NCBI GenBank assembly: GCA_035649395.1
Contig: DASRJR010000174.1
Location: 94,878-158,877, forward strand
DNA: 64,000 bases
Direction: 5' to 3'
Source of the DNA: Vicinamibacterales bacterium
Lineage (GTDB): Bacteria > Acidobacteriota > Vicinamibacteria > Vicinamibacterales > UBA2999
Below are positions 4,018-54,613 of this stretch, piece by piece; the stretch's first letter is position 1, and every line of letters begins with the position of its first letter. The position numbers and the translations under genes were made by a program. The notes beneath the pieces were generated by a model. It made no database searches, was not told the DNA's origin, and saw only the letters and a program-made list of their open reading frames with translations.

Positions 4018-4323
4018 CGCGACGTCTTCTCCAATTCTCAGATAATGAGGTCGGGAATAAGTCTGCCTTTTTGGAGAGACTAAGGTCAACGGTAAAGTCG
4101 CAAAAAGTGCCATCAAAGATCACGTTTTTGCGCAGAATTCTCGTAAACCAGGAACTAAAGCCGGCACATTAGATGTGGGCTTGAGCCCTATAGATCTATT
4201 TTTCAGTCACTTACAGTTTGTGATTGGCGAAACGCCGTCTGTCTAACTCCGAAGTACGAAATTTGTTATCGGGAGCGCACGCAGAGGACACGTCCGCGTC
4301 GACTGTCACAGGGCGGGCAAAGA

Positions 4324-30761: not shown

Positions 30762-30777
30762 AGTTTCACGTGAAACG
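30762..30777. other. parS site 1
   Basis: AGTTTCACGTGAAACG has a perfect 14-bp palindromic core GTTTCACGTGAAAC and matches the consensus TGTTTCACGTGAAACA at 14/16. Confidence 0.75.
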
Positions 30778-30807
30778 AGCCCCCGAAAGTCTGGCGAATC
30801 GTTCCGG

Positions 30808-30823
30808 TGTTTCACGTGGAACA
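30808..30823. other. parS site 2
   Basis: TGTTTCACGTGGAACA matches the parS consensus at 15/16. It lies 46 bp from site 1, between the rsmG stop and the parA start. Confidence 0.8.
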
Positions 30824-31488: not shown

Positions 31489-33341
31489 TTCGCCGCCTGA
31501 GTGTGAGTATCAGAGGAGAGCCTGGTCAAGAACACCGCGAGCACCGCAACGGCAGCGGGCGTGACGCCGGGAACCCTCGACGCCTGCCCCAGAGTCGTGG
31601 GGCGTACCTGGGACAGTCGTTGTACGACTTCCCTCGACAGTCCTGGGACCTTGGAGAACGGGAAAGAAGCCGGGATGACACGTCGTTCCTCGCGCTTCAA
31701 CCGCTCCGCCCGAGCGAGTTCCTGCTTCAGATAACCGGCGTACTTGACGGCTGTTTCAACGCTCGCAGCATCCAGCTCAGAATCGACGTCCAGCGGTAGC
31801 CCTTTTTCAATCAACGACTGCAGGCGGACCTGCGGTTGTCGCAGCAACTCGCGCGCGGGGATCCGAGTCCCGTTCGTGTTTTCCACAGAAGCTCGATCGA
31901 TGACGGCGAGGTTTCGTTCGTACCGCTCGCGACGATCCGAAAACCTCGCCCATCGCTCGTCATCCACCAGGCCAACCTGACGTCCCCTATTCGTGAGACG
32001 GAGATCCGCGTTGTCGATGCGAAGCAAGAGGCGATGCTCAGCGCGAGACGTGAACATGCGGTAAGGCTCCAGACATCCTCGCGTCACTAGATCATCAATG
32101 AGCACGCCGATGTAAGCCTCATCACGCGAGAGGACGAATGGCGGCCGTTTCGAGACGGCAGATGCGGCGTTGATGCCCGCGATCAGCCCCTGCGCCGCGG
32201 CTTCCTCGTAGCCGGACGTTCCATTGAGTTGTCCCGCCAAGAACAATCGGCCCACTCGATGGGTCTCCAGCGTCGCGCGGAGCTCCGTTGGCTGGACGAA
32301 GTCATATTCGACTGCGTAGCCCGGTCGAAGCAACCGGGCGGACTCCAGCCCGGAGAGCGAGTGGATCAGATCCTCTTGGACCTCTCGAGGCAGAGACATC
32401 GAGAACCCGTTGACGTAGACATCGTCGACGTCCAGTCCTTCAGGCTCGAGATAGATCTGGTGCCGCTCGCGGTCGGGAAAGCGCATCACTTTATCTTCGA
32501 GAGAAGGACAGTAGCGAGGGCCGATCCCTTTGATTTGTCCGTTGAATAACGGGCTCTCGTCGATGTGACGTCGCACGAGCGTCTTCACGCGCTCGTTGGT
32601 GTGAAGAAGCCAGCAGGAGGCGCGATTTCGAAGAACACCCCGAGTCTGATATGAGAACGGGACCGGGTGATCATCGCCACGCTCCTCGGCGAAGAGGCCG
32701 GCACGAACGCACGCATCGAAATCGATCGTCCGGCGGTCGAGCCGCGGCGGCGTTCCTGTCTTCAGACGACCCATCTGAAATCCGAGCGCCCGAATCGAGT
32801 CAGCGAGTTCACGAGAAGGCGGCTCGCCGTGACGTCCGGCGGCCCGCTGCTCTCGCCCGACGTGAATCAGCCCGTTGAGAAACGTGCCCGTCGTGATGAC
32901 GAGCGCTTCACACCGATGGATGTCGCCGTCTTCCATCGCGAGACCGACTGCGCGCCCACTCTCAACGAGAACTTGCCCTGCGGCACCGATCAGCCATTCA
33001 ATGTTGGGTTGTTGCCCAATTTCACCGCACACCCACTCGCTGTAGCGACGCTTGTCCGCTTGGGCGCGAGGAGACCACACCGCCGGACCTCGGCTCCGAT
33101 TCAGCAGCTTGAATTGAATGCCTGTCGCGTCAGCGGCGAGTCCCATCAGCCCACCGAGCGCGTCGATCTCCCTGACGAGATGCCCCTTTGCAGTCCCACC
33201 GATCGCGGGGTTGCACGGCATCTGCGCTACGGTGTCCCGCGACAGCGTGCAGAGACCGACATGACACCCCCTGCGTGCCGCCGCAAACGCGGCTTCGACG
33301 CCGGCATGGCCCGCGCCGACGACGATGACGTCGAAATGCAT
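31485..33341 (-). CDS. mnmG: tRNA uridine 5-carboxymethylaminomethyl modification enzyme
   Basis: FDVIVVGAGHAGVEAA, NPAIGGTAKGHLVREIDALGG and RPGYAVEYD. I prefer ATG 33341. Confidence 0.95.
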   Translation of the reverse strand: MHFDVIVVGAGHAGVEAAFAAARRGCHVGLCTLSRDTVAQMPCNPAIGGTAKGHLVREIDALGGLMGLAADATGIQFKLLNRSRGPAVWSPRAQADKRRYSEWVCGEIGQQPNIEWLIGAAGQVLVESGRAVGLAMEDGDIHRCEALVITTGTFLNGLIHVGREQRAAGRHGEPPSRELADSIRALGFQMGRLKTGTPPRLDRRTIDFDACVRAGLFAEERGDDHPVPFSYQTRGVLRNRASCWLLHTNERVKTLVRRHIDESPLFNGQIKGIGPRYCPSLEDKVMRFPDRERHQIYLEPEGLDVDDVYVNGFSMSLPREVQEDLIHSLSGLESARLLRPGYAVEYDFVQPTELRATLETHRVGRLFLAGQLNGTSGYEEAAAQGLIAGINAASAVSKRPPFVLSRDEAYIGVLIDDLVTRGCLEPYRMFTSRAEHRLLLRIDNADLRLTNRGRQVGLVDDERWARFSDRRERYERNLAVIDRASVENTNGTRIPARELLRQPQVRLQSLIEKGLPLDVDSELDAASVETAVKYAGYLKQELARAERLKREERRVIPASFPFSKVPGLSREVVQRLSQVRPTTLGQASRVPGVTPAAVAVLAVFLTRLSSDTHTQAAN

Positions 33342-35262: not shown

Positions 35263-37038
35263 TTAGTTCTTGTTCTCCGCACCGGCGGTTCGCCCCGCAC
35301 CGGCACTCTTGATCCGGCGCGGATCTGGTGCTGGCGCGGCGACGACCGGCTGCGGCCGACCAATCCACCAATTCGTAAAGTACTGCTGACCGATCGCGAA
35401 GAGATTACCAACGAACCAATACAACACCAGCCCGCTGGGAGCGGCGAGGAACATGACGCCGAACATCAGCGGCATGATCATCATGATTCGCTGCTGCGCA
35501 GGGTCCGCCGTCGATGGCGTAATCCGCTGCTGCCAGAACATCGTCAGCGCCATGAGAATCGGCGTGATGTAGTACGGATCGCGCTCAGAGAGATCGGTAA
35601 TCCAGAAGCCGAACCGGGCGCCGCGAAGCTCGATCGCTTGCGACAGCAGCGAGTAGAACGCAAACAAGACCGGCAGCGTGAGCAGCATGGGGACGCAGCC
35701 ACCCGCCGGGTTGACGCCCTTCTCCCGATACAGACTCATGATCTCCGAGTTCATCTTCTGCCGTTCGGGGTCGGTCACTTTCAAGCCCGCGTAGCGGTCT
35801 TGAATGGCCTTCAGCTGCGGCTGCAGTACCTGCATCTTCCGCATCGAGACGACACTCTTGTGGCGTAGCGGGAAGATCGCGAGGTTGATCAGAATCGTCA
35901 GGACGATGATGGCCCAACCCCAATTGCCGATATAGCCGTGAACCCATTTCAGCGCGTCCAGCAGCGGCTTGGCCAGGAATCCGAACATGCCGAAGTTGAT
36001 GGCTCGGACGAACACCGCGCCTTGTCCGATGCTGCGGTCCACGGCCTGAAGCTGATCGAACTGCTTCGGACCGACGAAGAACTGCAGTTGCTGCGGCGGC
36101 TGAGGCAACCGGATGGATGTTGAGACAAGCTGCCGCTGTGTCTGATTAAGCCCTGGCAGCGTCACGGCTTGGTACTCGACGCGTGCCTGGCCGGGCATCA
36201 CCGCCACAGTCAAGAAGTAATGGTCGTCGATGCCGGCAAACTGAAACGCCGCCTCGTGAACAGGTTGCCCCGCAATACTGCCGATCGGAATGCGCGTGGC
36301 GGATCCGTCGCGGAAGTAGATCGCCTGCGGCGGTTGGGTGTAATTGCCGGTGAAGTAACTTCCTCCACCGGAGACCGCACCGATATCTCCCAGTCCAGGG
36401 CCCCACGCGATCGTCGGATTCAGTGGCTGACCACCGCTCGTGACGATGGGCGACACGCCGATGAGGTATTGCTTGGGATCGAACCGAAACTCTTTGCGGA
36501 CCTGCAGGCCAGCAGCATCCTGAAATTCGAAGACGAGAGAGCCTGCCTGGGTCCTCGCGTTGAGACGCCCCGAGGTGTCACCGCTCACTCGATAGATTGC
36601 GTTGTTCAACCGCTCGGTCAGTTCGGCGTCGTCGACCACCAGTGAAAACGGCTTCGGTAGATTTGGCGGGACGTTCGAGGGGACCAGGTCGACAGGGTTA
36701 CCGCTGCGGTCACGATAATCGTGCAACTGCCAGTGCAGCAGCCGCCCACCCCGATTCGTGAATACCGCCTTGACGGTTTCGGTATCGACGACGATTTCAC
36801 GTTCGGAGCCCTCGGAGACTACCGGTTCGTGGATTGATTGCTCCGGCAATGGTGCAACGTCCGGAGCGGCCACGGCTCGTGGCGCTTCCGGTACCTGTGC
36901 GGGAGCGGGTGGTGGTTGAGTCGTTGCACTTTGCTTCTGCGCAGTGCCGTTCGTAGGGGGCCGTGGGACGAAGAGCGCCTGATAGCCGTACAGAACGACG
37001 ATCGACAGAAGAATGGCGATGAAGAACCTGCGTTCCAT
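35263..37038 (-). CDS. yidC: membrane protein insertase YidC
   Basis: 591 aa with an N-terminal TM segment, a large periplasmic domain, and the conserved C-terminal core (GWAIIVLTILINLAIFPL, KVNPAGGCVPMLLTLPVLFAFY). Confidence 0.95.
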   Translation of the reverse strand: MERRFFIAILLSIVVLYGYQALFVPRPPTNGTAQKQSATTQPPPAPAQVPEAPRAVAAPDVAPLPEQSIHEPVVSEGSEREIVVDTETVKAVFTNRGGRLLHWQLHDYRDRSGNPVDLVPSNVPPNLPKPFSLVVDDAELTERLNNAIYRVSGDTSGRLNARTQAGSLVFEFQDAAGLQVRKEFRFDPKQYLIGVSPIVTSGGQPLNPTIAWGPGLGDIGAVSGGGSYFTGNYTQPPQAIYFRDGSATRIPIGSIAGQPVHEAAFQFAGIDDHYFLTVAVMPGQARVEYQAVTLPGLNQTQRQLVSTSIRLPQPPQQLQFFVGPKQFDQLQAVDRSIGQGAVFVRAINFGMFGFLAKPLLDALKWVHGYIGNWGWAIIVLTILINLAIFPLRHKSVVSMRKMQVLQPQLKAIQDRYAGLKVTDPERQKMNSEIMSLYREKGVNPAGGCVPMLLTLPVLFAFYSLLSQAIELRGARFGFWITDLSERDPYYITPILMALTMFWQQRITPSTADPAQQRIMMIMPLMFGVMFLAAPSGLVLYWFVGNLFAIGQQYFTNWWIGRPQPVVAAPAPDPRRIKSAGAGRTAGAENKN

Positions 37039-37047
37039 GAGGAGTGT

Positions 37048-37269
37048 CTATGTGCCCGGCGGCACGGGATCGAAGCCGTGTCCGCCAAGAGGCCGACAGC
37101 GCATCAGACGACGGAGGCCCAACCAGGTTCCACGCACAGCTCCGAAGCGGCGCACGGCCTCCGCCATGTAATCCGAACATGACGGCTCGAAGCGACAGGA
37201 ACCCGTAAATAACGGAGAAACAAGCAGTTTATACGCTCGTAACAGTACGAGGACGACCGTGACGGCCAC
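37048..37269 (-). CDS. yidD: membrane protein insertion efficiency factor YidD
   Basis: LLRAYKLLVSPLFTGSCRFEPSCSDYMAEAVRRFGAVRG...GGHGFDPVP. I infer the start at GTG 37269, which overlaps the rnpA 3' end. The ORF opens at 37356. Confidence 0.75.
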   Translation of the reverse strand: MAVTVVLVLLRAYKLLVSPLFTGSCRFEPSCSDYMAEAVRRFGAVRGTWLGLRRLMRCRPLGGHGFDPVPPGT

Positions 37270-37636
37270 CGGGACGCCGGTTTGGCGATGATTGCCCCCG
37301 ATCGCGCCGTTCGAGAGCGGCGATGTAGTCGGCTTCAAGGGTAACGAACGGAGCATCGAGCATTTCCCGGCGTGGCACGATGACGATGTCTAGGCCAGCG
37401 CGGATCTTGTGTCGCCTGAAGACCTCGCGCGCCAGCCGTTTTGCGCGATTTCGTTCGACCGCCGATCCGAGTTTTCTCGTGGCCGCTACACCCAGACGAG
37501 AGGACGGACCGCCGTTGCCCACGACGAAGAGCGTCATGAAGCGCGCGTGGATCCGGACCCCGGTAGAGTAGGCGCGTTCGAAGTCGGGCCGGCGGCGGAC
37601 CCGCTCGGCGGGCGCCAATCCGTGGCCCTGCCCCAT
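37229..37636 (-). CDS. rnpA: ribonuclease P protein component
   Basis: RLGVAATRKLGSAVERNRAKRLAREVFR matches the RnpA pattern. The start is 3 nt after the rpmH stop. Confidence 0.85.
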   Translation of the reverse strand: MGQGHGLAPAERVRRRPDFERAYSTGVRIHARFMTLFVVGNGGPSSRLGVAATRKLGSAVERNRAKRLAREVFRRHKIRAGLDIVIVPRREMLDAPFVTLEADYIAALERRDRGQSSPNRRPGGRHGRPRTVTSV

Positions 37637-37639
37637 CGA

Positions 37640-37792
37640 TCAGCGCTCGTCGGCGACCGTCAGACGCTTGCGGCCCTTGGCTCGGCGGCGCTTCAACACG
37701 ATGCGGCCGTTCTTCGTTGCCATACGTACGCGGAAGCCGTGGGTCTTCTTCCGGCGGCGGACATTAGGCTGAAAAGTGCGCTTTCCCTTCAT
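37640..37792 (-). CDS. rpmH: 50S ribosomal protein L34
   Basis: Below the ORF-track size cut-off. My translation is [50 protein letters not shown]. Confidence 0.9.
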
Positions 37793-37847
37793 CTCGTTTG
37801 GGGTCCTATGTGTCCCAAGACCCTCCGGGGCGCCGGAGGAAATTTCA

Positions 37848-37877
37848 ATAGTAGTCGGCGCTTACCGGGACTGTCAA
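37848..37877 (-). promoter_or_regulatory. sigma-70-type promoter candidate for rpmH
   Basis: The minus strand reads TTGACA (37877..37872), an 18-nt spacer, then TACTAT (37853..37848). A 7-bp hairpin (37822..37839) lies in the predicted leader. Confidence 0.45.
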
Positions 37878-37964
37878 AGGATCTGAGTCGGACCCGCCGC
37901 TCTGTGCTACAGTCGCGGGCGCTCTTGAGAGGGTAGCGAAAGCGGCTTCGGTTTCTTCCCCAAG

Positions 37965-37996
37965 ATTTCCACAGGTGTGGAAAACATTGTGGAAAA
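37965..37996. other. cluster of three DnaA-box-like 9-mers (oriC element and/or dnaA autoregulation)
   Basis: ATTTCCACA (37965-73) matches TTATCCACA at 7/9. TGTGGAAAA at 37976-84 and at 37988-96 is the reverse complement of TTTTCCACA and matches at 8/9 each. Confidence 0.6.
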
Positions 37997-38172
37997 CGCA
38001 CCGTCGAGTTAGTTTGCCCAGAAAAGAGCCTGTTTTCCGCTAGTACGGCGCGCCCGTCGGTCTGAATTCCGGGGTTTTTCGGGCCTTCTGCCCTCGAGAA
38101 GCTTCGCTTCATGCGCCACCGGCCGCTCTTGCAGGCGAAAGTCACATTTCCCGAAGGTTGACACCCGTGATC

Positions 38173-39507
38173 ATGACGGACGCGAGCATTTGGGACCAGA
38201 TCCTCGCCAGGATCGAGACCAAGGTGAACCGGCACAGCTTCTACACCTGGTTTCGACCGACCACCCTTGTTGCCGATGGCGGCAATCAACTGACGATTCG
38301 CGTTCCAAACCCCCTGTTCAAGGATTGGCTCACGAAGCATTACGCCGTGGTGCTGGCCGAAGCCCTGGCCGAGGTGCACCGTGGCGGAGCGACCGTCGTC
38401 TTCGTCTCCGAGGGCTCTGCGACGGCGGCGTTCACGGCCGAGGAACCAACCCCTACGGCTCTGGAGCCAGCGGCCATTCCCGCCGCAGCATCGGGTGGAT
38501 TGAATCCGCGCTACAGCTTCGACACGTTCATCGTCGGTTCGTCGAACCAGTTTGCGCACGCTGCGTGCCGCGCGGTCGCAGAAGCCCCGTCGCGCTCGTA
38601 CAACCCGCTCTTCATTTACGGTGGTGTCGGTCTCGGCAAAACACACCTGATGCACGCGATCGGTCACTACGTGCTGAACCACGATTCGTCGCTGAAGCTC
38701 ACCTACATCTCGTCCGAGCGGTTCATGAACGAGATGATCAACGCCGTCCGGTACGATCGGATTCTGGATTTTCGAGAGCGCTATCGAAGCGTCGATCTGC
38801 TGCTCGTCGACGACATTCAGTTCGTTTCCGGCAAGGAAGGTACACAGACCGAGTTCTTCCACACGTTCAATGCTCTGTACGACGCGCAGAAACAGATCGT
38901 GCTGAGCAGCGATCGTCCGCCGCATGAAATCACGGCGCTCGAAGAGCGTCTCCGCTCACGGTTCGAATGGGGTCTCATTGCCGACATTCAGCCGCCCGAT
39001 CTCGAAACGAAGGTCGCCATTCTGAAAAGAAAGGCCGAAGCCGAGGCGGTACCGCTTCCCGACACCGTTGCGATATACATCGCCGGCAGGATCAAGTCGA
39101 ACATCCGCGAGCTTGAAGGTTCATTGATTCGCCTCATTGCCTATGCGTCGCTGACGGGCCGCGAGATCTCGCTCGAGCTCGCACAGGAAGTTCTGAAGAA
39201 CATCCTCGATCAGGACGAGAAGGCGATCACGATCGAAAGCATCCAGAAGTTCGTCGCCGACTACTATCAACTGAAGATCGCGGACCTGAAGTCACGAAAC
39301 AACTCGAAGTCGGTCGCGATGCCCCGTCAAGTGGCGATGTATTTGTGTAAGTCGCTGACGAATGCGTCGCTGCCTGAGATCGGCCGCAGCTTTGGGGGAA
39401 AGCACCACTCGACCGTGATTCACTCGATCAAGAAGGTCGAAGATCTGCGCAAGCACGAAGGAGATTTCAACAGCTTGATCAAGAGCTTTCTGGAATCATT
39501 CCGATAG
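38173..39507 (+). CDS. dnaA: chromosomal replication initiator protein DnaA
   Basis: Walker A GGVGLGKTHLMHAIG, LLVDDIQF, and the C-terminal box-binding helix GRSFGGKHHSTVIHSIKKV. The start is ambiguous among TTG 38158, GTG 38167 and ATG 38173. Confidence 0.95.
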   Translation: MTDASIWDQILARIETKVNRHSFYTWFRPTTLVADGGNQLTIRVPNPLFKDWLTKHYAVVLAEALAEVHRGGATVVFVSEGSATAAFTAEEPTPTALEPAAIPAAASGGLNPRYSFDTFIVGSSNQFAHAACRAVAEAPSRSYNPLFIYGGVGLGKTHLMHAIGHYVLNHDSSLKLTYISSERFMNEMINAVRYDRILDFRERYRSVDLLLVDDIQFVSGKEGTQTEFFHTFNALYDAQKQIVLSSDRPPHEITALEERLRSRFEWGLIADIQPPDLETKVAILKRKAEAEAVPLPDTVAIYIAGRIKSNIRELEGSLIRLIAYASLTGREISLELAQEVLKNILDQDEKAITIESIQKFVADYYQLKIADLKSRNNSKSVAMPRQVAMYLCKSLTNASLPEIGRSFGGKHHSTVIHSIKKVEDLRKHEGDFNSLIKSFLESFR

Positions 39508-39795
39508 GATCCGCCGACATCCACAGCGCACTGTCAACAGCCGGTGTGCAGCACCAGCTCGACCGCAACTATGCACAGGGAACGCACGATTGTCACGACC
39601 ATAAATTCACAGAATCGTCCACACTGTAAGCTATTGAGAGTCAAGCTTTAATCGTCCCTTGTTGAGTTTTGCACGGCACCCTTTCTTCGGTATAATTTTG
39701 TATCTCTTCTGATCACTACGGTGGAGTGAGATCTTTCCGCCGAACGTCCACTTAACGCGGGCCACGCCGCTCTGCTCGAAGGACAGTACACGCCA
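39508..39795. other. AT-rich dnaA-dnaN spacer: candidate DNA-unwinding part of oriC, also carrying a dnaN promoter
   Basis: I count 48 G+C in the 120 nt of 39601-39720, which is 40%. Weak DnaA boxes are ACATCCACA (39517-25) and TCGTCCACA (39615-23). TTGCAC-N16-TATAAT lies at 39669-39696. Confidence 0.45.
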
Positions 39796-40899
39796 ATGGA
39801 ACTGGTCGTTCGGAAGAATGAGCTTCTGCGAGAACTGCAGCTCTTCCAAGGCATCGTCGAGCGGAAGAACACGATCCCGATTCTCGCGAACGTGTTGCTC
39901 GAAGCGAAGGGCGACGAGGTCCGCATGCTCGCCACGGATCTCGAAGTTGCACTGCGAAGTCGCTGTCAGGCGGCTGTTGCAAAGGGTGGTTCGCTCACGC
40001 TTCCTGCGAAGAAGCTGTACGAAATCATCAAGGCGCTGCCAGAAACGGACGTTCGAATCGAAGAGGATCGGAAGGGCGTGAAGGTTGCCGCCGATCGGTT
40101 CGACTCGCGGATGCAGACGCTGCCACGAGAGGACTTTCCGACGCTGCCCGATGCCAGCGGCAAGGCTCGCGCGGTGTTGCCGCGCAGCGCCGTGAAGGAG
40201 ATGGTGGCCAAGACGCAGTATGCGATTACCGGCGAGGACACGCGCTTCTTCCTGAATGGCGCGAAGCTCGTACTCAAGCCGCAAAGCCTGACGCTCGTCG
40301 CCACTGACGGTCACCGGTTGGCGCTCGTCGACGTGCAGCACGACACCGGCATCACGCAAGAGGTGGGCGTCATTCTGCCGAAGAAGACGCTGCTAGAGTT
40401 GGGCAAGCTGCTCGCCGAAGGTGAAGGCGATGTGCAATTCGAGAGTGGGGAGAACCATCTGTTCTTCGAGGTCGCCGGACGCGTCCTGATCTCCCGCATG
40501 ATTGACGGACAGTTCCCGACCTACGAGCGCGTCATCCCCAAGGGCAACGACAAAACTATCGAGTTCGATCGAGAACGGCTGACCAACGCGGTCAAGCGCG
40601 TGGCTCTCCTCTCGAACGAACGTTCTCGCGCCGTGAAGTTCGAGATCGATCAAGGCAAGGTCGAGGTGACATCCAGCAGTTCCGAATTCGGCGAAGCGCA
40701 CGAACAACTGCCGGTCGAATACCCAGGCCCTGCTCTGACGATCTCGTTCAACGCGCAGTATGTGCTCGACTTCCTCAATGTGGTCGAGACCGACGTGGTC
40801 TCGTTGTCGTTGAAGGACGAAGTCAGCCAGGCCGTGATGAAGCCTGTCGGCGCGAAAGGCTACGACTATACCTACGTGATCATGCCCATGCGCATCTGA
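39796..40899 (+). CDS. dnaN: DNA polymerase III beta sliding clamp
   Basis: 367 aa: MELVVRKNELLRELQLFQGIVERKNTIPILANVLLEA...ATDGHRLA...YVIMPMRI. Confidence 0.95.
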   Translation: MELVVRKNELLRELQLFQGIVERKNTIPILANVLLEAKGDEVRMLATDLEVALRSRCQAAVAKGGSLTLPAKKLYEIIKALPETDVRIEEDRKGVKVAADRFDSRMQTLPREDFPTLPDASGKARAVLPRSAVKEMVAKTQYAITGEDTRFFLNGAKLVLKPQSLTLVATDGHRLALVDVQHDTGITQEVGVILPKKTLLELGKLLAEGEGDVQFESGENHLFFEVAGRVLISRMIDGQFPTYERVIPKGNDKTIEFDRERLTNAVKRVALLSNERSRAVKFEIDQGKVEVTSSSSEFGEAHEQLPVEYPGPALTISFNAQYVLDFLNVVETDVVSLSLKDEVSQAVMKPVGAKGYDYTYVIMPMRI

Positions 40900-40919
40900 T
40901 GGGCGAGGTGTGGGAGTAG

Positions 40920-43511
<2,592 letters not shown>

Positions 43512-46053: not shown

Positions 46054-46565
46054 GGCATCGCCTGCGTGCGCTGAGCGCCGCAGGCGTCCTCTGCCTCGTT
46101 TCAGCGTGTGCGCCGGCCCCCGACGAGCAGGTGCTGACGCGGTTTTTCGAGGCGTCGCGTACCCTCGACAGTATCCGTCTGGATCGCTTCGCCACCGTCG
46201 TCTTCAATCCGCGGACGGATGGAAGTATTCAGCGCTTCTCGGTGACCGATCGCGGTGCCGATCGGCGTCGCTCGATCGATGCCTCGAACCGGGAAGCGGC
46301 CGTCAGGAGCCTCGCCGCGACGCAGCGTCAAGACATCGATCTCTCTGACGCCTCTGTCGGAATCATCGAGCGAGACATCACGGTCGAGGCCGAGGTACGT
46401 GCCCCCAGCGGTGCGGTCGGGCGTGGTGTGCTGATCGTCACTCTAGAGCGGGCAGTCGGCACAAGAGCGGGCGTGTCGATTGCGGGTCAATGGATCGTTA
46501 CGCGCCTGCAGCGAGCTCCAGCCGAGCGAACTTCGCGCGCAGTGTCTTCTGGCCCACCGAGTTGA
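46050..46565 (+). CDS. hypothetical lipoprotein
   Basis: Signal peptide plus lipobox LCLVSAC. The start overlaps the gyrA stop. The 3' end overlaps the convergent uvrD by 68 nt. Confidence 0.5.
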   Translation: MRHRLRALSAAGVLCLVSACAPAPDEQVLTRFFEASRTLDSIRLDRFATVVFNPRTDGSIQRFSVTDRGADRRRSIDASNREAAVRSLAATQRQDIDLSDASVGIIERDITVEAEVRAPSGAVGRGVLIVTLERAVGTRAGVSIAGQWIVTRLQRAPAERTSRAVSSGPPS

Positions 46566-48759
46566 AACGCACGACCAGCTTGAGGTCGTCATCGAGCGGT
46601 TCGACGGTCATGACTGTGCCGATGCCGAACTGCGCGTGCCTGACGCGCAGTCCTGGTCTCAGGCCCGCCCACTGTGACTGATCGTCGTTCTCGTAGGCGT
46701 AGACGGGCTCTTCCCGCACGCGACCGCGATAACCGCCGCCGCGAGGATAGCCGTCGTATTGCGAGAACGAACGCTGCGACGGCGCGTACGCCGAGGGCAC
46801 TTCTTCGAGCAGCGCGGCCGGGATCTCTTCGATGAAGCGGGAGGGTTGCGTTGACTGATAATCGCCGAAGACGCGCCGTCGCGCCGCCGATGTCAGCACC
46901 AGCCGCTTCTGCGCACGCGTAATGCCCACGTAACACAGCCGTCGCTCTTCCTCGAGTTCGGCCTCGTCGTCACTCGATCGTGAGTGCGGGAAGAGGCCCT
47001 CTTCGAGACCGCTCATCACCACGATCGGGAACTCAAGTCCCTTCGCACTGTGCAGCGTCATCATGAGGACGCGCGCGCCCCGTGATCCGGCCTCTTCGTC
47101 GGCATCGGACAACAGCGAAAGCTGATCGACGAAACCGGCCAACGTCGGTTCGGGTGTGCGCGCCTCGAACTCACGCGCGGCCGACACGAGCTCAGCGAGG
47201 TTTTCGACTCGGCCTTCTGCTTCCTCGCTGCGTTCCTCTCGCAGGTCCTGCAGATAGCCGCTCCTGTCGAGCACTTTGGCGAGCGCGACGGCGACGGTCT
47301 CCTGCTCGATCATCCCCCGCAGTCCGGTGATCAGCTGCTGAAACGCGGCAAGTGATGCAACGGCGCGCGGGGCGAGCGCACGAGTGGCGACGACGTGGTT
47401 GATACGGGCCCACAGGGAACGGCTTACCGCGGCGTCGTTGAGGCCGGCGAAGAGAGGCGGTGCCGTATCGGTTGGCACCTCGATCCCCTCGAGCGACTCC
47501 ATCACGCCCTTGCCGATGCCGCGCGCTGGAACGTTGATGATTCGCCGCACGCTGACGTCGTCCGCCGGGTTGAGGATCACTTTCAAATACGCGAGCGCGT
47601 CTTTGATCTCTTTGCGTTCGTAAAACCGGACGCCACCGATGATTCGGTAGGAGGTACCTGCCCGCCGCAGCGCATCTTCCAGCGTTCGCGACTGCGAGTT
47701 GGTTCGATAGAGAATGGCGACGCTCGCGTCGGGCTCTCGGATGGCGGCGCTGGCATTCCGGGCGATGAACTCGGCTTCATCCAGGTCGTCGCCGGCGCGG
47801 TAGTACAGGATGTGTGCGCCTCCCGCCGTGTCGGTATACAGCCGCTTCTCTTTCCGGCTGCGATTCTGCGCGATCACCGCGGACGCGGCGTCGAGAATGA
47901 CCTGCGTCGACCGGTAGTTTCGTTCCAGCTTGACGGTCGTGGCTTCGGGGAAGTCCTGCTCGAAATCGAGGATGTTCCGCAGGTCGGCGCCACGCCAGCG
48001 ATAGATCGACTGGTCGGGGTCGCCGACCACGCAGAGATTGCGATGCTTGGCCGCCAGTCGCCGCACCAGCAGATACTGCGGACGATTGGTGTCCTGATAC
48101 TCGTCCACCATCACGTAGCGAAACTTGTGGCTGTACCGCTCGCGAACCTGCTCGGATGTCTCGAACAACTCGACGGTCTTCAGCAGCAAATCGTCGAAGT
48201 CGAGCGCATTGGCCTCTTTCAGGGCACGCGTGTAGAGCGCGTAGAGCTGCTGCATCTGCTGCGCTCGGAAGTCCCACGCCGCGTTTGCGGCAAACGCCTC
48301 GGGACCCTCCATTCGATTCTTCGCGTGGCTGATGCGTGACAACACCACGCGGGGCTGAACCGTCGAGTCGTCCACGCCGAGCTCTTTGAGCGCCTGCTTC
48401 ATCGCGCTCAACTGGTCGGCCGAGTCGTAGATCACGAAATCGCGAGACAGTCCCACATGCGGAGCTTCGCGACGCAGCAGTCGAGCGCACAGCGCGTGGA
48501 ACGTGGAGATCCACATCTGCCGGCAGTCGACGCCGAGCAGGGCCTCGACGCGCGCCCGCATCTCTTCCGCGGCTTTGTTGGTGAACGTGACTGCGAGGAC
48601 GCGGTCCGGTGCCGCGAATCCATGGCTGACCAGGTACGCGATCCGATGGGCGATGACGCGCGTCTTCCCTGAGCCGGCCCCTGCGAGGATCAGAACGGGG
48701 CCATCGGTCTGCAGGACGGCCGACCGCTGCTCGGAGTTCAGCGAGGAGAGGAGGTCCAC
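46498..48759 (-). CDS. uvrD: ATP-dependent DNA helicase, UvrD/PcrA family
   Basis: LNSEQRSAVLQTDGPVLILAGAGSGKTRVIAHRIAYL, VMVDEYQDTN and VTFTNKAA. Confidence 0.9.
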   Translation of the reverse strand: MDLLSSLNSEQRSAVLQTDGPVLILAGAGSGKTRVIAHRIAYLVSHGFAAPDRVLAVTFTNKAAEEMRARVEALLGVDCRQMWISTFHALCARLLRREAPHVGLSRDFVIYDSADQLSAMKQALKELGVDDSTVQPRVVLSRISHAKNRMEGPEAFAANAAWDFRAQQMQQLYALYTRALKEANALDFDDLLLKTVELFETSEQVRERYSHKFRYVMVDEYQDTNRPQYLLVRRLAAKHRNLCVVGDPDQSIYRWRGADLRNILDFEQDFPEATTVKLERNYRSTQVILDAASAVIAQNRSRKEKRLYTDTAGGAHILYYRAGDDLDEAEFIARNASAAIREPDASVAILYRTNSQSRTLEDALRRAGTSYRIIGGVRFYERKEIKDALAYLKVILNPADDVSVRRIINVPARGIGKGVMESLEGIEVPTDTAPPLFAGLNDAAVSRSLWARINHVVATRALAPRAVASLAAFQQLITGLRGMIEQETVAVALAKVLDRSGYLQDLREERSEEAEGRVENLAELVSAAREFEARTPEPTLAGFVDQLSLLSDADEEAGSRGARVLMMTLHSAKGLEFPIVVMSGLEEGLFPHSRSSDDEAELEEERRLCYVGITRAQKRLVLTSAARRRVFGDYQSTQPSRFIEEIPAALLEEVPSAYAPSQRSFSQYDGYPRGGGYRGRVREEPVYAYENDDQSQWAGLRPGLRVRHAQFGIGTVMTVEPLDDDLKLVVRFNSVGQKTLRAKFARLELAAGA

Positions 48760-48765
48760 TTCCTC

Positions 48766-50610
48766 CTATTCTACCGTTACGCTCTTCGCGAGATTCCTCG
48801 GCTGATCGACGTCGCAGCCGCGCCGCACCGCGATGTAATACGCGAGCAGTTGAAGTGGAATTGTCATCACGATCGGCGTCAGCAACTGTGACGTGCGCGG
48901 CATCGACAGCATCACGTCCTGCGCGGCGTCCAACACGGACGACATGCGGTCGTCACCCGCGGTCGTGATCGCGATGACCGATCCCCCGCGCGCCTTCGCC
49001 TCCTGTACGTTGCCGATCATCTTCTCGAACACGGCATCGTCGGGTGCGATCGCGACGATGGGCATCCGCTCGTCGATCAGCGCGATCGGGCCGTGCTTCA
49101 TCTCCCCGGCCGGGTAGCCCTCGGCGTGGATGTATGAGATCTCCTTCAACTTGAGCGCTCCCTCGAGCGCAATCGGGTAGTTGATCCCGCGACCGAGGAA
49201 CAGGAAATCGGTTCTGGCATGGAATCGCTCAGCGACACGCTCCATTGCAGTGGACGCTTTGACGGCCTGTTCGATGATCTGGGGTATGTGCAGCAGGTCC
49301 TCGATGTGCCCACGCATCGCGGCCGGGCTCAGCGTGTCTCGCACTTGCGCGAGGTACAGTCCGAGCAGGTGCAGCGCCACCAGTTGTGACGTGAACGCTT
49401 TCGTCGACGCCACGCCGATCTCGGGTCCGGCGTGGGTGTAGACCGTGCCGTCGGCTTCGCGCGTGGCCATGCTGCCCACGACGTTGCAGATGGCAATGCT
49501 GCTGGCTCCCTTTCGCTTGGCCTCGCGCAGCGCCGCCAGAGTATCTGCCGTCTCGCCAGATTGCGAGATGACGATGGCCAGCTCGTTGGGCCCGATGATC
49601 GGGTTGCGATAGCGGTACTCGGAGCCGTAGTCGACCTCGACGGGCAGCTGGGCGAGTGACTCGATCAGATACTTCCCCACGAGCGCGGCGTGCCACGAGG
49701 TGCCGCACGCGATGATGGTCACCTTCTGCAGGGCCCGCAATGCCGCGTCCTCGACGTTCAGGTTCTCGAGAAAGATCCGGCCGCTGTCAAGCGAGACCCG
49801 CCCCAGGATGGTGTCGCGTGCGGCCGTCGGCTGCTCGAAGATTTCCTTGAGCATGAAGTGCTTGTGCCCGCCCTTTTCCGCCGCGATTGGATCCCAGAGC
49901 ACGCGCTGCGTCGTCTTCGAGACGGCGCGGCCGAAAAAATCGGTGAACTGAACGCCGGAGCGCGTGATGACGGCCATCTCCTCGTCGCCGAGGAAGACGA
50001 CGTCGCGCGTGTGACTGAGGATTGCCGGGATATCCGAGGCCACGAAGAACTCGTCCTGACCGAGGCCGACGACGATGGGTGGGCCGTTGCGAACGGCAAC
50101 GATCTTTTCGGGATCCTCCACCGACACGATGACGATGGCGAACATGCCGCGCAGATAGGTCAGTGCCCGTCGAACGGCGTTCTCGAGGCCGTCATCGCGC
50201 ATCTCGCGCTCGACGAGGTGAGCGACGATTTCAGTGTCCGTCTCCGTGGTGAAGACGTGACCCTGCTCGCGCAGCTCGTGTTTCAACTCGAGATAGTTCT
50301 CGATGATCCCGTTGTGAACGACGACAATGCGTCCGGTGCAATCGCGATGCGGATGGGCGTTTTCCTCAGTGGGCCGACCGTGCGTGGCCCATCGCGTGTG
50401 GCCGATGCCGTAAATGCCATCGACCGGCTCGGTGCGGAGTGCATGTTCGAGATTCGCGAGCTTGCCGGCCGATCGCCGCAGCGCGATGCCCTCGGGGCTC
50501 AGGAGCGCGACACCGGCGGAGTCGTACCCGCGATACTCCATCCGCCGGAGTCCCTCGAGCAGCACAGGGAGCACCGGTTTTGAACCCACATAACCAATGA
50601 TTCCGCACAT
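48766..50610 (-). CDS. glmS: glutamine--fructose-6-phosphate aminotransferase
   Basis: MCGIIGYVG is the N-terminal nucleophile. Tandem SIS domains follow, and the C-terminus is NLAKSVTVE. Confidence 0.97.
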
Positions 50611-50614
50611 GACG

Positions 50615-52018
50615 TCAGACCCCGTCCTTCTCTTTCTTCCGGTCTACCCAACCAGGCACATTGCGCTGCCGTCCACGAGCGATCCCCAGCGCACCTGCCG
50701 GCACATCTTCCGTGATCGATGAACCCGCTGCGACGTAGGCGCCCTCGCCGACCCGCACCGGAGCAATCAGCTGTGAATCGCTGCCGATAAACGCTCCGTC
50801 CCCGATCACCGTCTGGTGTTTGGCGCGGCCGTCGTAGTTGCACGTAATCGTGCCAGCGCCGACGTTGACGTTCGCGCCCACTTTGGCGTCCCCGAGGTAC
50901 GCAAGATGGCTCGCCTTCGATTTGGGCCCAAGCGTGGTCTTCTTCAGTTCGACGAAGTTCCCGATCTTCGCGCCCTCGCCGACGACGTTTCCGGGCCGAA
51001 GGTGCGCGAACGGTCCTACGGTGGCTCCATCTGCAACTTTTGAACCAGTGATCACGCAGAAGTTGTTTATCGTGACCCGGTCGCCAATCTCCGAGTCGAC
51101 GATTCGCACGTAGCCCTGGATTTCACAGCCTGCACCAATGCGGCTGCGTCCTTCGATGATGGCACCCGGGTGAATCACGGTATCGGGCATGACCTCGGCG
51201 TCCATGTCGATGTAGGTCGTTGCGGGATCGATCAGCGTCACGCCGGCAGCCATCAATTCTTCATTCTTCTTTTGGTTCACAATCTTGCTCACTTCCGCCA
51301 GTTCTGTGCGGCTGTTGATTCCACGGATCTCCCGTGAGTCGTCGATCACCAGCGTATCCACGACGAGCTTGCGTCGGCGATAGAGGGCAATCAGATCGGT
51401 CAAGTAGTACTCGCCTTGAGCGTTCTTCGACGAAATCCCGCGGAGGGCGTCGAAAAGCGGAGCCACGTCGAACGCATAGATTCCGCTGTTGATCTCCTTG
51501 ATGTGCCGCTGCTCTGGGGAGGCATCTCGCTCTTCGACGATACGGGCGATAGCCCCCCGGCTTCGGACGATCCGCCCGTAGCCAAAGGGCCGATCGACGA
51601 TTGCCGTAACCACGGTGGCTGCGGCTCCGGCACCACAGTGACGTTGCACGAGCGCCTGCAGTGTGGCGGTGCTGAGCAGCGGCACGTCCCCTGACAGAAG
51701 CACGAGCGTCCCGCTGCGTCCGGCCAGGAGCGGTTCAACCTGTTGGAGCGCGTGCGCCGTGCCGAGCTGCGGCTCCTGAATGGCGAAGCTCAGTCCCTGC
51801 CAGGTACCTAGGAGGTCTCTTACTAGTTCGGCCTTATGACCAACTACGATAGAAGTGGTTGAAGCGGCAAGAGGCGCAGCGGACCGAAGTACGTGTTCGA
51901 TAAGGGAATGTCCGGCGATTCGGTGCAAGACCTTCGGCAACTGAGACTTCATCCTGGTGCCCTGTCCGGCCGCCAAGACGACCACGTGAATCTCGGTCAA
52001 AGCAGGAGGAGTCGTCAT
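50615..52018 (-). CDS. glmU: bifunctional UDP-N-acetylglucosamine pyrophosphorylase / GlcN-1-P acetyltransferase
   Basis: [13 protein letters not shown] is followed by left-handed beta-helix hexapeptide repeats in the C-terminal half. Confidence 0.95.
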
Positions 52019-52026
52019 TGACTTGG

Positions 52027-52872
52027 TCAGTCACCAGATCGCTTTGATTTTTCGATGATGGCATAGACCTGCTTCGAAGGTATGTCGAACTTCTTCGCCA
52101 GCGTCGAAATCGCTTGGCGTCGTCCGGCGACCCCTTCTATGGTCATAGACCAGAATTCTGTGGCCACGCGCCGCTCGTCAACCTCCCCAGAACCAGCCAC
52201 GGCCTTGATAATTGGGCTAATGACCACGGTAATTTCACCCTTGGTGATGGCGAGTCGCTCGGCAAGCTCAGCACACGTGCCGCGCAGAAACTCCTGATGG
52301 ACTTTGGTGAGTTCACGCGCCACCATTATCTGGCGAGTGCCCATAATTAAGGATGCTTCTCTGAGTGTGTTACCGATGCGGCGGGGCGACTCAAAGAACG
52401 TCACAGTGTTAGAAACTCCAGAAATAGCTGATATCCATGACGTTCTGTCTTTAGGCCTACGAGGGGGGAAGCCAAGAACGGTCAGTGGCAGAACTGCGAA
52501 TCCGGAGACGACGACCGCCGCAATCGCCGCCGAGACGCCTGGAACCGGTTCCACAGGGATTCCCTCTAACACACACGCGCGCACGAGCTCTTCTCCCGGG
52601 TCTGAGATACCTGGCGTGCCAGCGTCAGAGACGATGGCAATTGAGCATTCAGATCGTAGTTGTGCGAGCAGCTCCGGCAGACGCCGTTTCGTGTTGTGGG
52701 CGTGGAAACTGACGGTCCGGGTGGAAATCCCGTGATGAGTCAGCAGTTTCGCAGTACGCCGCGTATCTTCGGCAGCGATGAGGTCGACCTCGCGCAGGAC
52801 TCGCAGCGCCCGCAGCGTGATGTCCTCGAGGTTGCCGATGGGCGTGGCGACCACAAACAGCGTACCGGACAT
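52027..52872 (-). CDS. rsmI: 16S rRNA (cytidine1402-2'-O)-methyltransferase
   Basis: GTLFVVATPIGNLEDITLRALRVLREVDLIAAEDTR. I prefer ATG 52872. Confidence 0.9.
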   Translation of the reverse strand: MSGTLFVVATPIGNLEDITLRALRVLREVDLIAAEDTRRTAKLLTHHGISTRTVSFHAHNTKRRLPELLAQLRSECSIAIVSDAGTPGISDPGEELVRACVLEGIPVEPVPGVSAAIAAVVVSGFAVLPLTVLGFPPRRPKDRTSWISAISGVSNTVTFFESPRRIGNTLREASLIMGTRQIMVARELTKVHQEFLRGTCAELAERLAITKGEITVVISPIIKAVAGSGEVDERRVATEFWSMTIEGVAGRRQAISTLAKKFDIPSKQVYAIIEKSKRSGD

Positions 52873-52954
52873 CGCGATGACGGAGCGGTTATTGTACCAT
52901 TGGCGGGATGAGCGCTCCCCAAGTCGCGGCACAGAGCGCCACCCACGACAGGGC

Positions 52955-54613
52955 ATGTACCCATCGGAGCCATTTCCGCACTTCGTCGACGATTACCTCG
53001 CGTACCTGCACGAGACCCTGCCAAGCCACGCGGGCCTCGACGGGGTCCACGTTCATGATGATCTGCTCGAGGATCTGAGCCGGCCGTCCATCGACGTGCA
53101 TGTCCGGGCCCTCGCTGGCTTCGGACGCCGCCTGCACCAGATCACGCCGGAACTCCTCTCGCCGGTCGAGCGGATCGAGCATCCGATTGTTGCGGCCAAC
53201 ATCGAGGCCCGGATGTTCGAGCATGAGGTCATCCGGTCGTGGGATCGAAGCCCGCAGGTCTATTCGGACCTGATTGGCAGCAGTCTCGCCGGACAGGCGC
53301 TGTTCGCCTATGCGCCGGAACCCGAGCGAGCGCGGCGCGTCGTGTCCAAGCTGCGGCAGGTGCCCAGACTGGTGCAGGCGGCCCGCGACAACATCAAGGA
53401 GTGCCCCGGGATCTTCGTGAAGGTCGGTCTCGAAACGTGGCGCGGGGTGCTGAAATTTATCGAGACCGACCTTCCGCGTGCGTTTTCTGGGCTCGACGAC
53501 CTGCATATTCTCGGCGACCTGGCAGACACGTCGGCCGAAGCCGCACTGGCCATCAAGTCCTACGTCGACTATCTCGAAACCGATCTGGCGCCGCGGGCCA
53601 AGGCCTCGTTCCGCCTCGGTCGCGAGAGGTTCGAGCAGAAGCTCAAACTCGACGAGGGAGTCACACTCAGCGCGGATCGACTGCTCGCCATCGCGATGCG
53701 CGAACTCGGAGCCGTGCAGGACGAATTCCGCGCCGTTGCGAGCCGCATCAACGGCGGCGATCCGCTAGAGGTCTGGCGAGTCGCCAAAGAGGAGCATCCG
53801 CAACCCGGGAGCCTGTTGGCGGTCGCGCAAGCGCAGGTCCAGGAGCTCGAAGAATTCTTACGCTCGGAAGATATCGTGTCGCTGCCGGACTCCGAGCCGG
53901 TTGTCGTCGCGCCTTCGCCCGAGTTCTACCGATGGGCGTTCGCCAGCATGTGGACGCCGGGTCCGTTCGAGTCGAAGCCAAGCCGCGCGTATTACTACCT
54001 GACCGAAGCGGATCGATCGTGGCCCTCGGAACGCCAGAAGGAGCACATGCGGGATTTCAATATCCCGACGCTCTGGAACATCTCGATTCACGAGGTCTAC
54101 CCCGGACACTTCCTCCACTTCCGCCATTTGAGGAAGGTCGAATCGAAGGTGCGGAAGTCGACGCTCTTCGCATCAGTATCGTTCGTCGAAGGATGGGCGC
54201 ATTATTGCGAGCAGATGATGATCGAGGCGGGGTTCCGCCGGCGCGATCCCACGATCAGACTCGGACAGCTGGCCGAGTCGCTCGTGCGCCTGGCCCGCGT
54301 GATCGTGTCGGTCCGCCTCCACTGCGAGGATCTGTCGGTTGAACAGGGCATGCGGTTTTTCAGAGACGAGGCGTTTCTCGAGGAAGCGACGGCGAGACGC
54401 GAAGCCGAACGCGGTACCTTCGATCCGGGTTACCTGCTGTACTCGGTTGGTAAACTGATGATGTTGAAGATGCGGCGCGACTTCAAGGAACAGCAAGGCG
54501 GCAAGTACTCGCTACGGGCGTTCCACGACACTGTGCTGGCGCAAGGCAATGCGCCGTTCCGAGCGCATCGACAACTGCTCCTCGGCGAGACGACGGACGC
54601 GTCCCTGGATTGA
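52955..54613 (+). CDS. DUF885 family protein
   Basis: IHEVYPGHFLHF and FVEGWAHYCEQMM are hallmark motifs. I prefer ATG 52955. The ORF opens at 52778, antisense to rsmI. Confidence 0.8.
   Translation: MYPSEPFPHFVDDYLAYLHETLPSHAGLDGVHVHDDLLEDLSRPSIDVHVRALAGFGRRLHQITPELLSPVERIEHPIVAANIEARMFEHEVIRSWDRSPQVYSDLIGSSLAGQALFAYAPEPERARRVVSKLRQVPRLVQAARDNIKECPGIFVKVGLETWRGVLKFIETDLPRAFSGLDDLHILGDLADTSAEAALAIKSYVDYLETDLAPRAKASFRLGRERFEQKLKLDEGVTLSADRLLAIAMRELGAVQDEFRAVASRINGGDPLEVWRVAKEEHPQPGSLLAVAQAQVQELEEFLRSEDIVSLPDSEPVVVAPSPEFYRWAFASMWTPGPFESKPSRAYYYLTEADRSWPSERQKEHMRDFNIPTLWNISIHEVYPGHFLHFRHLRKVESKVRKSTLFASVSFVEGWAHYCEQMMIEAGFRRRDPTIRLGQLAESLVRLARVIVSVRLHCEDLSVEQGMRFFRDEAFLEEATARREAERGTFDPGYLLYSVGKLMMLKMRRDFKEQQGGKYSLRAFHDTVLAQGNAPFRAHRQLLLGETTDASLD

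Follow-up and report, generated by a model that had tools for sequence, protein, structure and literature searches.

We analysed a 64-kb stretch of DNA (hereafter the window) from an uncultured soil bacterium of the Vicinamibacterales (Acidobacteriota), which has a GC content of 62.7%, and focused on the two spacers that flank dnaA, between rpmH and dnaA and between dnaA and dnaN. An earlier note on this DNA had proposed that the two spacers form a bipartite origin of replication (oriC) around dnaA, with tightly packed DnaA boxes upstream of the gene and an unwinding element downstream. The minus strand carries, in order, parB, parA, rsmG, mnmG, mnmE, jag, yidC, yidD, rnpA and rpmH, and these genes are followed on the plus strand by dnaA, dnaN, gyrB and gyrA; all of them, as well as dusB, were confirmed by Pfam. 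We consider it probable that this stretch holds the chromosomal oriC of the bacterium and that it is laid out like the origin of Bacillus subtilis. The elements on which this reading depends are the following.

37965-37996, no strand assigned: DnaA-box triad, consisting of box 1 on the plus strand, a 2-bp gap, box 2 on the minus strand, a 3-bp gap and box 3 on the minus strand
38173-39507, plus strand: dnaA, with an ATG at 38173 in a frame open from the TTG at 38158; Pfam domains DnaA_N, Bac_DnaA and Bac_DnaA_C
39517-39525, plus strand: box a, ACATCCACA, 9.4 bits, the first box past the dnaA stop codon, aligned with the consensus TTTTCCACAG of the relatives
39569-39577, plus strand: weak box CTATGCACA, 5.8 bits
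39615-39623, plus strand: box c, TCGTCCACA, distal to box d and 52 bp upstream of it
39627-39639, plus strand: site TAAGCTATTGAGA resembling the consensus of integration host factor (IHF), with one mismatch to YAANNNNTTGATW, between boxes c and d
39667-39675, plus strand: box d, TTTTGCACG, with two mismatches, proximal to the DNA-unwinding element (DUE) and overlapping a -35-like hexamer
39676-39720, plus strand: candidate DUE, with a GC cluster (GCAC) and a T/C-rich, AT-rich tract that includes TATAAT at 39691-39696
39796-40899, plus strand: dnaN; Pfam DNA_pol3_beta domains 1 to 3

Direct reading of the upstream spacer located the three boxes within 37965-37996, where the earlier note had placed them. 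Box 1 is ATTTCCACA (37965-37973, plus strand), and boxes 2 and 3 are both TTTTCCACA (37976-37984 and 37988-37996, minus strand); the palindrome TTTCCACA-GG-TGTGGAAA that the note had described is also present in the triad. One further perfect TTTTCCACA occurs in the window, at 31879 inside mnmG, and no perfect TTATCCACA was found in the 64 kb. When the window was simulated with a first-order Markov model, three boxes with at most one mismatch within 40 bp were obtained in none of 300 simulations, and two boxes in 4 of 300. A weight-matrix scan of the 64 kb revealed no other strong box cluster.

For comparison with relatives, a genome scan with the DnaA protein of the window provided 80 loci of about 7 kb, with 3 kb on each side of dnaA. 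All of them come from the Vicinamibacterales/Vicinamibacteria (Acidobacteriota) or from evidently mislabelled metagenome-assembled genomes, their DnaA proteins are 66-86% identical to that of the window, and the order rnpA-rpmH <> dnaA-dnaN is kept in 78 of the 80. The triad was found in 76 of the 80 loci, where the boxes keep their order and orientation and their starts are 11 and 12 bp apart (12 and 12 bp in a few of these loci). Since this geometry is kept while the letters in the gaps vary among the relatives, the spacing, and not the sequence of the gaps, is under selection. Perfect boxes occur at 7.3 per kb in the upstream spacers compared with 0.029 per kb elsewhere in the loci, and relative to flanking DNA the box word is enriched about 250-fold in the upstream spacer and 64-fold in the downstream spacer. 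The flanks of the triad in the relatives are neither conserved nor markedly AT-rich, and no triplet pattern was observed in them.

The exact triad pattern was also searched for in metagenomes, and at least 120 contigs were obtained. Among the matches listed, dnaA lies to the right of the triad and in the same orientation in all 101 contigs that could be judged, the remaining 19 of the 120 listed being too short on the dnaA side; the distance to dnaA is at most 700 bp in 100 of the 101 and 1.1 kb in the other, and no triad at a locus other than dnaA was found among these listed matches. About twelve of the listed contigs belong to distant lineages, with DnaA proteins 43-54% identical to that of the window and GC contents from 26 to 67%, and the largest group among them is Candidatus Aminicenantes, as judged by the names of the closest database proteins. 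The order in Aminicenantes is TTGAAA-17-TGCTATGAT, about 40 nt, the triad, 15-25 nt and the dnaA ATG, in which the -10 equivalents are TGCTATGAT or TGCTATTAT with TTGAAA as the -35 hexamer. Box arrangements are usually regarded as variable from one species to another (PMC5043019), and the near-invariant geometry found here departs from that view.

Triad carriers were also noted among low-GC metagenome contigs. Contigs L115 and L175 (26-27% GC) and L104 (36% GC) have an exact TTTTCCACA triad before dnaA. Before dnaN, L115 and L175 contain a textbook unwinding module, TTTTCCACA-CA-ATCCACAAC-ACCTA-(CTA)n followed by AT-rich DNA, and the spacer of L104 is weaker, with no box of at most one mismatch and a CTA CTA CTT run ahead of AT-rich DNA. 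The residues R399 and D433, which contact the box in Escherichia coli DnaA, are replaced by N and H in the DnaA proteins of the window and of Aminicenantes, while two of the low-GC triad carriers retain R and D and yet have the same TTTTCCACA box. Since R and D are retained together with this box, the two residues alone do not explain the box variant.

The surroundings of the triad indicate two divergent promoters in the upstream spacer, both predicted from the sequence.

37848-37877, minus strand: rpmH promoter from the promoter scan, with TTGACA, an 18-bp spacer and TACTAT
37905-37913, plus strand: TGCTACAGT, which fits an extended -10 (TGn + TAnnnT) of a putative dnaA promoter and precedes the triad by 51 bp

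In an alignment of 78 upstream spacers, both hexamers of the rpmH promoter lie inside conserved blocks, the extended -10 element of dnaA forms a conserved block of its own, and TGnTAnAnT is found upstream of the triad in 66 of the 78. Because the triad is located downstream of this conserved element, from which dnaA would be transcribed, it would lie within the transcribed dnaA leader. At the least, DnaA is predicted to bind the triad in the leader of its own gene, which points to autoregulation. Two other candidates were rejected: TAGTAG at 37848-37853, considered as DnaA-trios, is the rpmH promoter -10 hexamer on the opposite strand, and CTGTGCTACAG, considered as a DnaA box, shows four mismatches on direct reading and fits an extended -10 element.

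A DnaA-box word was also observed within the dnaA coding sequence, at 38855-38863, where it overlaps the conserved EFFHTF motif and reads TCTTCCACA in the window. The same motif position in Aminicenantes dnaA is an exact TTTTCCACA, and the Aminicenantes gene contains three internal boxes at conserved positions (3880, 4256 and 4419 in L161; also in L167, L180, L106 and L134). These internal boxes could be by-products of a protein motif or additional DnaA-binding sites. When the DnaA protein of the window was aligned with that of E. coli, the Walker A lysine, the arginine finger and sensor 2 were all found to be kept.

The downstream spacer was examined in terms of its helix stability and its box content. 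The GC content of 39601-39720 is exactly 40.0%, which bears out the value given in the earlier note and compares with 62.7% for the window, and the least stable 100-mer of the whole window is 39618-39718 (z = 4.4). The relatives behave likewise, since 73 of 74 have the least stable 80-mer of their locus between dnaA and dnaN, with its centre about 98 bp ahead of dnaN, and the sole conserved low-stability element is located in this spacer. The spacer of the window also contains four same-strand box sites of 5.8-9.4 bits, compared with 0.19 expected. The earlier note had called the downstream boxes weak, and this is correct for the genome of the window. The relatives, on the other hand, show a full box array and not incidental weak boxes, with means of 2.45 sites of at least 8 bits and 1.17 sites of at least 12 bits per downstream spacer, so that the note's description of this spacer as an unwinding element holds for its conserved low stability and falls short for its boxes.

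The order of elements in the relatives is box a (>) at 0-30 bp past the dnaA stop codon, one to three boxes b (<), box c (>), the IHF-like site, box d (>), the GC cluster, the T/C-rich tract with TATAAT, and then about 100 bp to dnaN. The window retains ACATCCACA at 39517, TCGTCCACA at 39615, TAAGCTATTGAGA at 39627, TTTTGCACG at 39667 and TATAAT at 39691, with weakened boxes. In the relatives the position of box c is taken by TTTTCCACA or TTTTGCACA; its distance to box d is usually 51-52 bp, and that to TATAAT is mostly 75-76 bp, or 87-88 bp in another group. Box d is TTTTCAACA or TTTTGCACA in the relatives and stands 24 bp before TATAAT in 41 of 58 loci; box d of the window reads 5'-TTTTNCACA-3' toward the T-rich tract. 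An exact TATAAT was found in 75 of 77 spacers, and G is scarce on the top strand from -12 to +30, being below 10% at most positions with a median of about 4%. Since the relatives combine a complete array of strong boxes with an IHF-like site and a DUE-proximal box, the downstream half could be a self-sufficient origin.

A perfect copy of the IHF-like word YAANNNNTTGATW occurs in 14 of 77 spacers, and 43 of 77 contain it with at most one mismatch; almost every placed site lies at -63/-64 from TATAAT and in the same orientation. Of 58 segments, 30 contained an IHF-like site, compared with 2.55 in composition-matched shuffles, and the window matches the IHF consensus WATCAANNNNTTR with one mismatch at 39627-39639. 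In 565 kb, 14 of the 21 perfect matches to the word fall within dnaA-dnaN spacers. Neither the window nor the loci of the relatives yielded an IHF or HU gene. From its sequence and fixed position, we suggest that 39627-39639 may be bound by IHF.

In Aminicenantes, the dnaA-dnaN spacers consist of a box, a (CTT)n-like tract and AT-rich DNA, and they lack TATAAT. Because the tract is kept there without the hexamer, the T-rich tract appears to be more than a promoter. The most likely unwinding site in the window is 39676-39720. The promoter scan calls TTTGCA-17-TATAAT in the same place, and the roles of the tract as dnaN promoter and as unwinding site are compatible.

We then compared this arrangement with the B. 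subtilis locus, in which incA and incB lie upstream of dnaA and incC lies between dnaA and dnaN. In this comparison the sequence elements correspond one by one, with the same topology and polarity. The gene frame rnpA-rpmH <> dnaA-dnaN is shared, and in both loci a >,<,< triad stands 42-51 nt downstream of the dnaA -10 element. The B. subtilis contig reads TTATCCACA-aag-TGTGGATAA-gt-TGTGGATTG, 42 nt after the dnaA -10 element TGGTATTAT and in the classical upstream half of the origin. Its dnaA-dnaN spacer reads TTATCCACA-AATCCACAG-GCC-(CTA...), with a T-rich tract and AT-rich DNA. Downstream, both loci have several boxes, a proximal box oriented as 5'-TTATCCACA-3' toward a GC cluster, a T-rich tract and AT-rich DNA before dnaN, and, 44 bp or more upstream of the proximal box, a distal box; the polarity of box d is that of B. 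subtilis box 6. The B. subtilis origin depends on a distal box that stands 44 bp or more upstream of the proximal one and works via a loop (PMC6669920), and the 52-bp spacing of boxes c and d with a bend site between them fits such looping. The two loci differ in their triad gaps (2 and 3 bp in the window, 3 and 2 bp in B. subtilis), in their box consensus (TTTTCCACA in the clade of the window, TTATCCACA in B. subtilis) and in the number of upstream boxes, three compared with about fourteen candidates in B. subtilis. Furthermore, the window has no clear CTA-type trio repeat (a run of 3 compared with 9 in B. subtilis), and it has an IHF-consensus site, a perfect TATAAT and 63% GC, unlike B. subtilis.

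Similar relations were observed with other origins. As in the oriC1-dnaA-oriC2 arrangement of Helicobacter pylori and other Epsilonproteobacteria, two DnaA-binding sub-regions are split by dnaA, and only the downstream one contains the unwinding element, together with a DUE-proximal box whose orientation is fixed (PMC5043019). The box arrangement of oriC1 varies between epsilonproteobacterial species (PMC5043019), whereas the triad described here is near-invariant across the order and beyond. The module known as BUS consists of a DnaA box, a spacer of at most 16 bp and DnaA-trios (Pelliciari et al. 2021, PMC8287927), and box d with its two mismatches is followed at offset 16 by a run of three NTN triplets in the correct polarity. 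The left half of E. coli oriC (R1, IHF site, R5M) is similar in that an IHF-consensus site lies between boxes of the same orientation about 5 helical turns apart and adjoins the unwinding element, but the strand composition of the DUE relative to the box orientation is opposite to that at E. coli R1/DUE and matches B. subtilis.

The wider surroundings mark the region as origin-proximal, through two parS-like sites and through the gene order parAB-rsmG-mnmG-mnmE-jag-yidC-rnpA-rpmH / dnaA-dnaN-gyrB-gyrA.

30762-30823, no strand assigned: two parS-like sites, AGTTTCACGTGAAACG at 30762-30777 and TGTTTCACGTGGAACA at 30808-30823, between rsmG and parA

These palindromes lie 7 kb away, just upstream of parA and in the end of the rsmG region, and are probably ParB loading sites. 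They are the two matches in the window with at most three mismatches to TGTTTCACGTGAAACA, compared with 0.10 expected, and two or more such matches occurred in none of 100 shuffles. The cumulative GC skew of the window has its minimum at 36-40 kb. The earlier note had also argued from gene orientation, and the left side agrees with it strongly, since every Pfam-checked gene in the span from dusB to rpmH is encoded by the minus strand; on the right side the argument holds for 8.4 kb only.

These comparisons show that both spacers flanking dnaA are conserved, DnaA-box-enriched modules, and we suggest that they belong to an origin organized as in B. subtilis. The interpretation in the earlier note is supported in part: its two-part layout is retained in this reading, and the downstream spacer is more than an unwinding element. 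The locus is an expected feature of a known two-part plan, well preserved in a phylum without a studied origin. In the mechanism that we propose, the divergent rpmH and dnaA promoters would be followed by the triad (> 2 bp < 3 bp <), a rigid group of high-affinity boxes within the leader of dnaA. With DnaA on these boxes, transcription of dnaA would most likely be repressed by a roadblock, and the triad may double as a DnaA-loaded anchor that loops to the downstream half. There, a DnaA oligomer would nucleate at the proximal box d, aided by a bend or a loop to the distal box, and would open the 45-bp T-rich, AT-rich tract, leading to helicase loading, while TATAAT would probably drive dnaN as well. 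What the sequences show directly is that the elements exist, are enriched, keep their positions and have low helix stability; binding by DnaA and IHF, the site of unwinding, looping and autoregulation are inferred from them. Whether the triad is required for origin firing, as a truly bipartite origin demands, we regard as an evenly balanced question.

Here, we need to consider several observations that weigh against an origin of this kind. Autoregulation of dnaA alone fully explains the position of the triad in the leader, which in Aminicenantes is 15-25 bp before the start codon, and box d together with TATAAT can equally be read as an ordinary dnaN promoter. The downstream boxes of the window itself are weak, with one alone reaching 8 bits. 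At the clade level no 3-nt periodicity of DnaA-trios was found next to the triad, box c or box d. NTN runs of three or more are present in 87% of the relatives compared with 58% of shuffles, which is a mild excess; they start 4-6 bp after box d in most relatives and in the correct polarity, and the offset of 16 in the window is the limit of the published BUS rule, which asks for at least three NAN trios on the correct strand and within 16 bp of a box with at most two mismatches. Since that rule is permissive and the runs in the clade are mildly above shuffles without 3-nt periodicity, DnaA-trios are not demonstrated here. At four-fold degenerate sites the GC skew of the left side (-0.016 +/- 0.014) does not differ significantly from that of the right side (+0.003 +/- 0.017; difference 0.018 +/- 0.022), and 64 kb is too short for GC skew, whether raw or at four-fold sites, to be decisive. 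The rightward run of plus-strand genes spans just 8.4 kb, from dnaA to 46565, and is followed by four minus-strand genes at 46498-52956. An intergenic region at 4029-4269, which is probably a promoter region, is nearly as unstable as the downstream spacer (z = 4.1-4.3, GC 41-42%) and has no DnaA boxes. In addition, a literature search found no paper on an experimentally mapped origin in Acidobacteriota.

An origin that is strictly split, with DnaA assembling mainly on the triad, a downstream spacer that is in essence an unwinding element and nothing more, and two indispensable halves, would agree with the window taken by itself, where every strong box is found upstream and the AT-rich DNA is confined to the downstream side. 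It would also agree with B. subtilis and H. pylori, in which both origin halves are essential in vivo, although one alone unwinds (PMC6669920). We consider such an origin unlikely, because the strong downstream boxes of the relatives and their fixed layout with a DUE-proximal box make the downstream half look self-sufficient, and the fixed place of the triad in the dnaA leader points to gene regulation before anything else. Still less likely is a start of replication at the triad itself, as in the Pseudomonas type, with the downstream spacer serving just as the dnaN promoter. The boxes of highest affinity are indeed in the rpmH-dnaA spacer, and 37946-38046 is moderately unstable (z = 3.0), but there are three boxes only, their flanks have the unconserved, trio-free character described above, and the mean best stability z of the relatives is 2.4 upstream compared with 4.1 downstream; we therefore regard this possibility as very remote. 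That both clusters are transcriptional operators only, for dnaA autoregulation and for DnaA/IHF control of the dnaN promoter, and that replication starts elsewhere, seems to us improbable. E. coli dnaA is located 42 kb from oriC, the triad stands downstream of a promoter, box d shares positions with a -35-like hexamer that is separated from a perfect TATAAT by 17 bp, and the GC skew does not decide, all of which would be consistent with operators. On the contrary, the 64 kb contain no other strong box cluster, the parS sites and the ancestral origin gene order are present, the low-stability tract is conserved beyond the needs of a -10 hexamer, and the Aminicenantes spacers combine a box and a T-rich tract with no TATAAT.

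The triad may also be compared with the DnaA-reactivating sites (DARS) of E. coli, a relation that is compatible with the other readings. In such a scheme, ADP-DnaA would occupy boxes 1 and 2 head-to-head and box 3 head-to-tail, ADP would be released and DnaA recharged with ATP. The DARS1 core is TTATCCACT-5 bp-TGTGGATAA-3 bp-TGTGTATTA and the DARS2 core is TTATTCACC-5 bp-TGTGGATAG-3 bp-TGTGAAGAA, so that both are built of three boxes, of which I and II face each other and III follows II in tandem after a 3-bp gap, in the same >,<,< order as the triad. The DARS model involves a head-to-head pair on boxes I and II that depends on Gln208, and the 20-bp span of boxes 1 and 2 is within the 19-26 bp that it allows (PMC6868365). 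However, the I-II gap is 2 bp in the window (3 bp in a few relatives) and not 5 bp, the triad is located in the dnaA leader, and Gln208, which is required for DARS activity in E. coli, is Asn in the DnaA of the window; the same position is Asn in four other triad-carrying lineages too. Moreover, a topology match of this sort has a prior of about 1 in 20 by chance, and B. subtilis, which is not known to use DARS, shares the topology with gaps of 3 and 2 bp. The relation is one of resemblance and not of membership, and we think it doubtful that the triad is a DARS-like site. Since the topology is common to B. subtilis and the E. coli DARS cores, the triad is a candidate for a conserved functional unit of DnaA assembly. 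A leader triad of this topology was found in Vicinamibacteria, Aminicenantes, two low-GC lineages and Bacillus, and it could conceivably be an ancient cross-phylum module, an ancestral DnaA assembly site coupling dnaA transcription, nucleotide recycling and origin firing, of which the enterobacterial DARS would be relocated descendants; this idea is speculative, and we hold it to be improbable.

Together with its relatives, the locus provides a concrete map with three parts: an operator of three boxes in the leader of dnaA, an array of boxes that includes an IHF-like site, and a candidate unwinding tract of 45 bp. Acidobacteriota are among the most abundant soil phyla, and a map of the origin can be used for growth-rate estimates from metagenome coverage (peak-to-trough ratios) and for the construction of replicating vectors for bacteria that are hard to grow.

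Some minor observations concern the neighbourhood of the spacers. An Rfam scan of 37000-40500 gave a single match, a sub-threshold AsdA inside dnaA, so the spacers are not explained by an RNA element in that range. AsdA is an antisense RNA of Salmonella dnaA mRNA, and the match at 38617-38686 on the minus strand (33 bits compared with a gathering score of 52) most likely reflects the conserved Walker A coding region and not an RNA gene. In the window gyrB directly follows dnaN (40899-40932), with no recF or yaaA/remB between them, which differs from the B. subtilis order dnaA-dnaN-yaaA-recF-gyrB seen in contig L204. The longest yidD frame and rnpA (37048-37356 and 37229-37636) overlap by 128 bp, and since the Pfam match of yidD begins at residue 34 of this frame, the true yidD start is probably further downstream.

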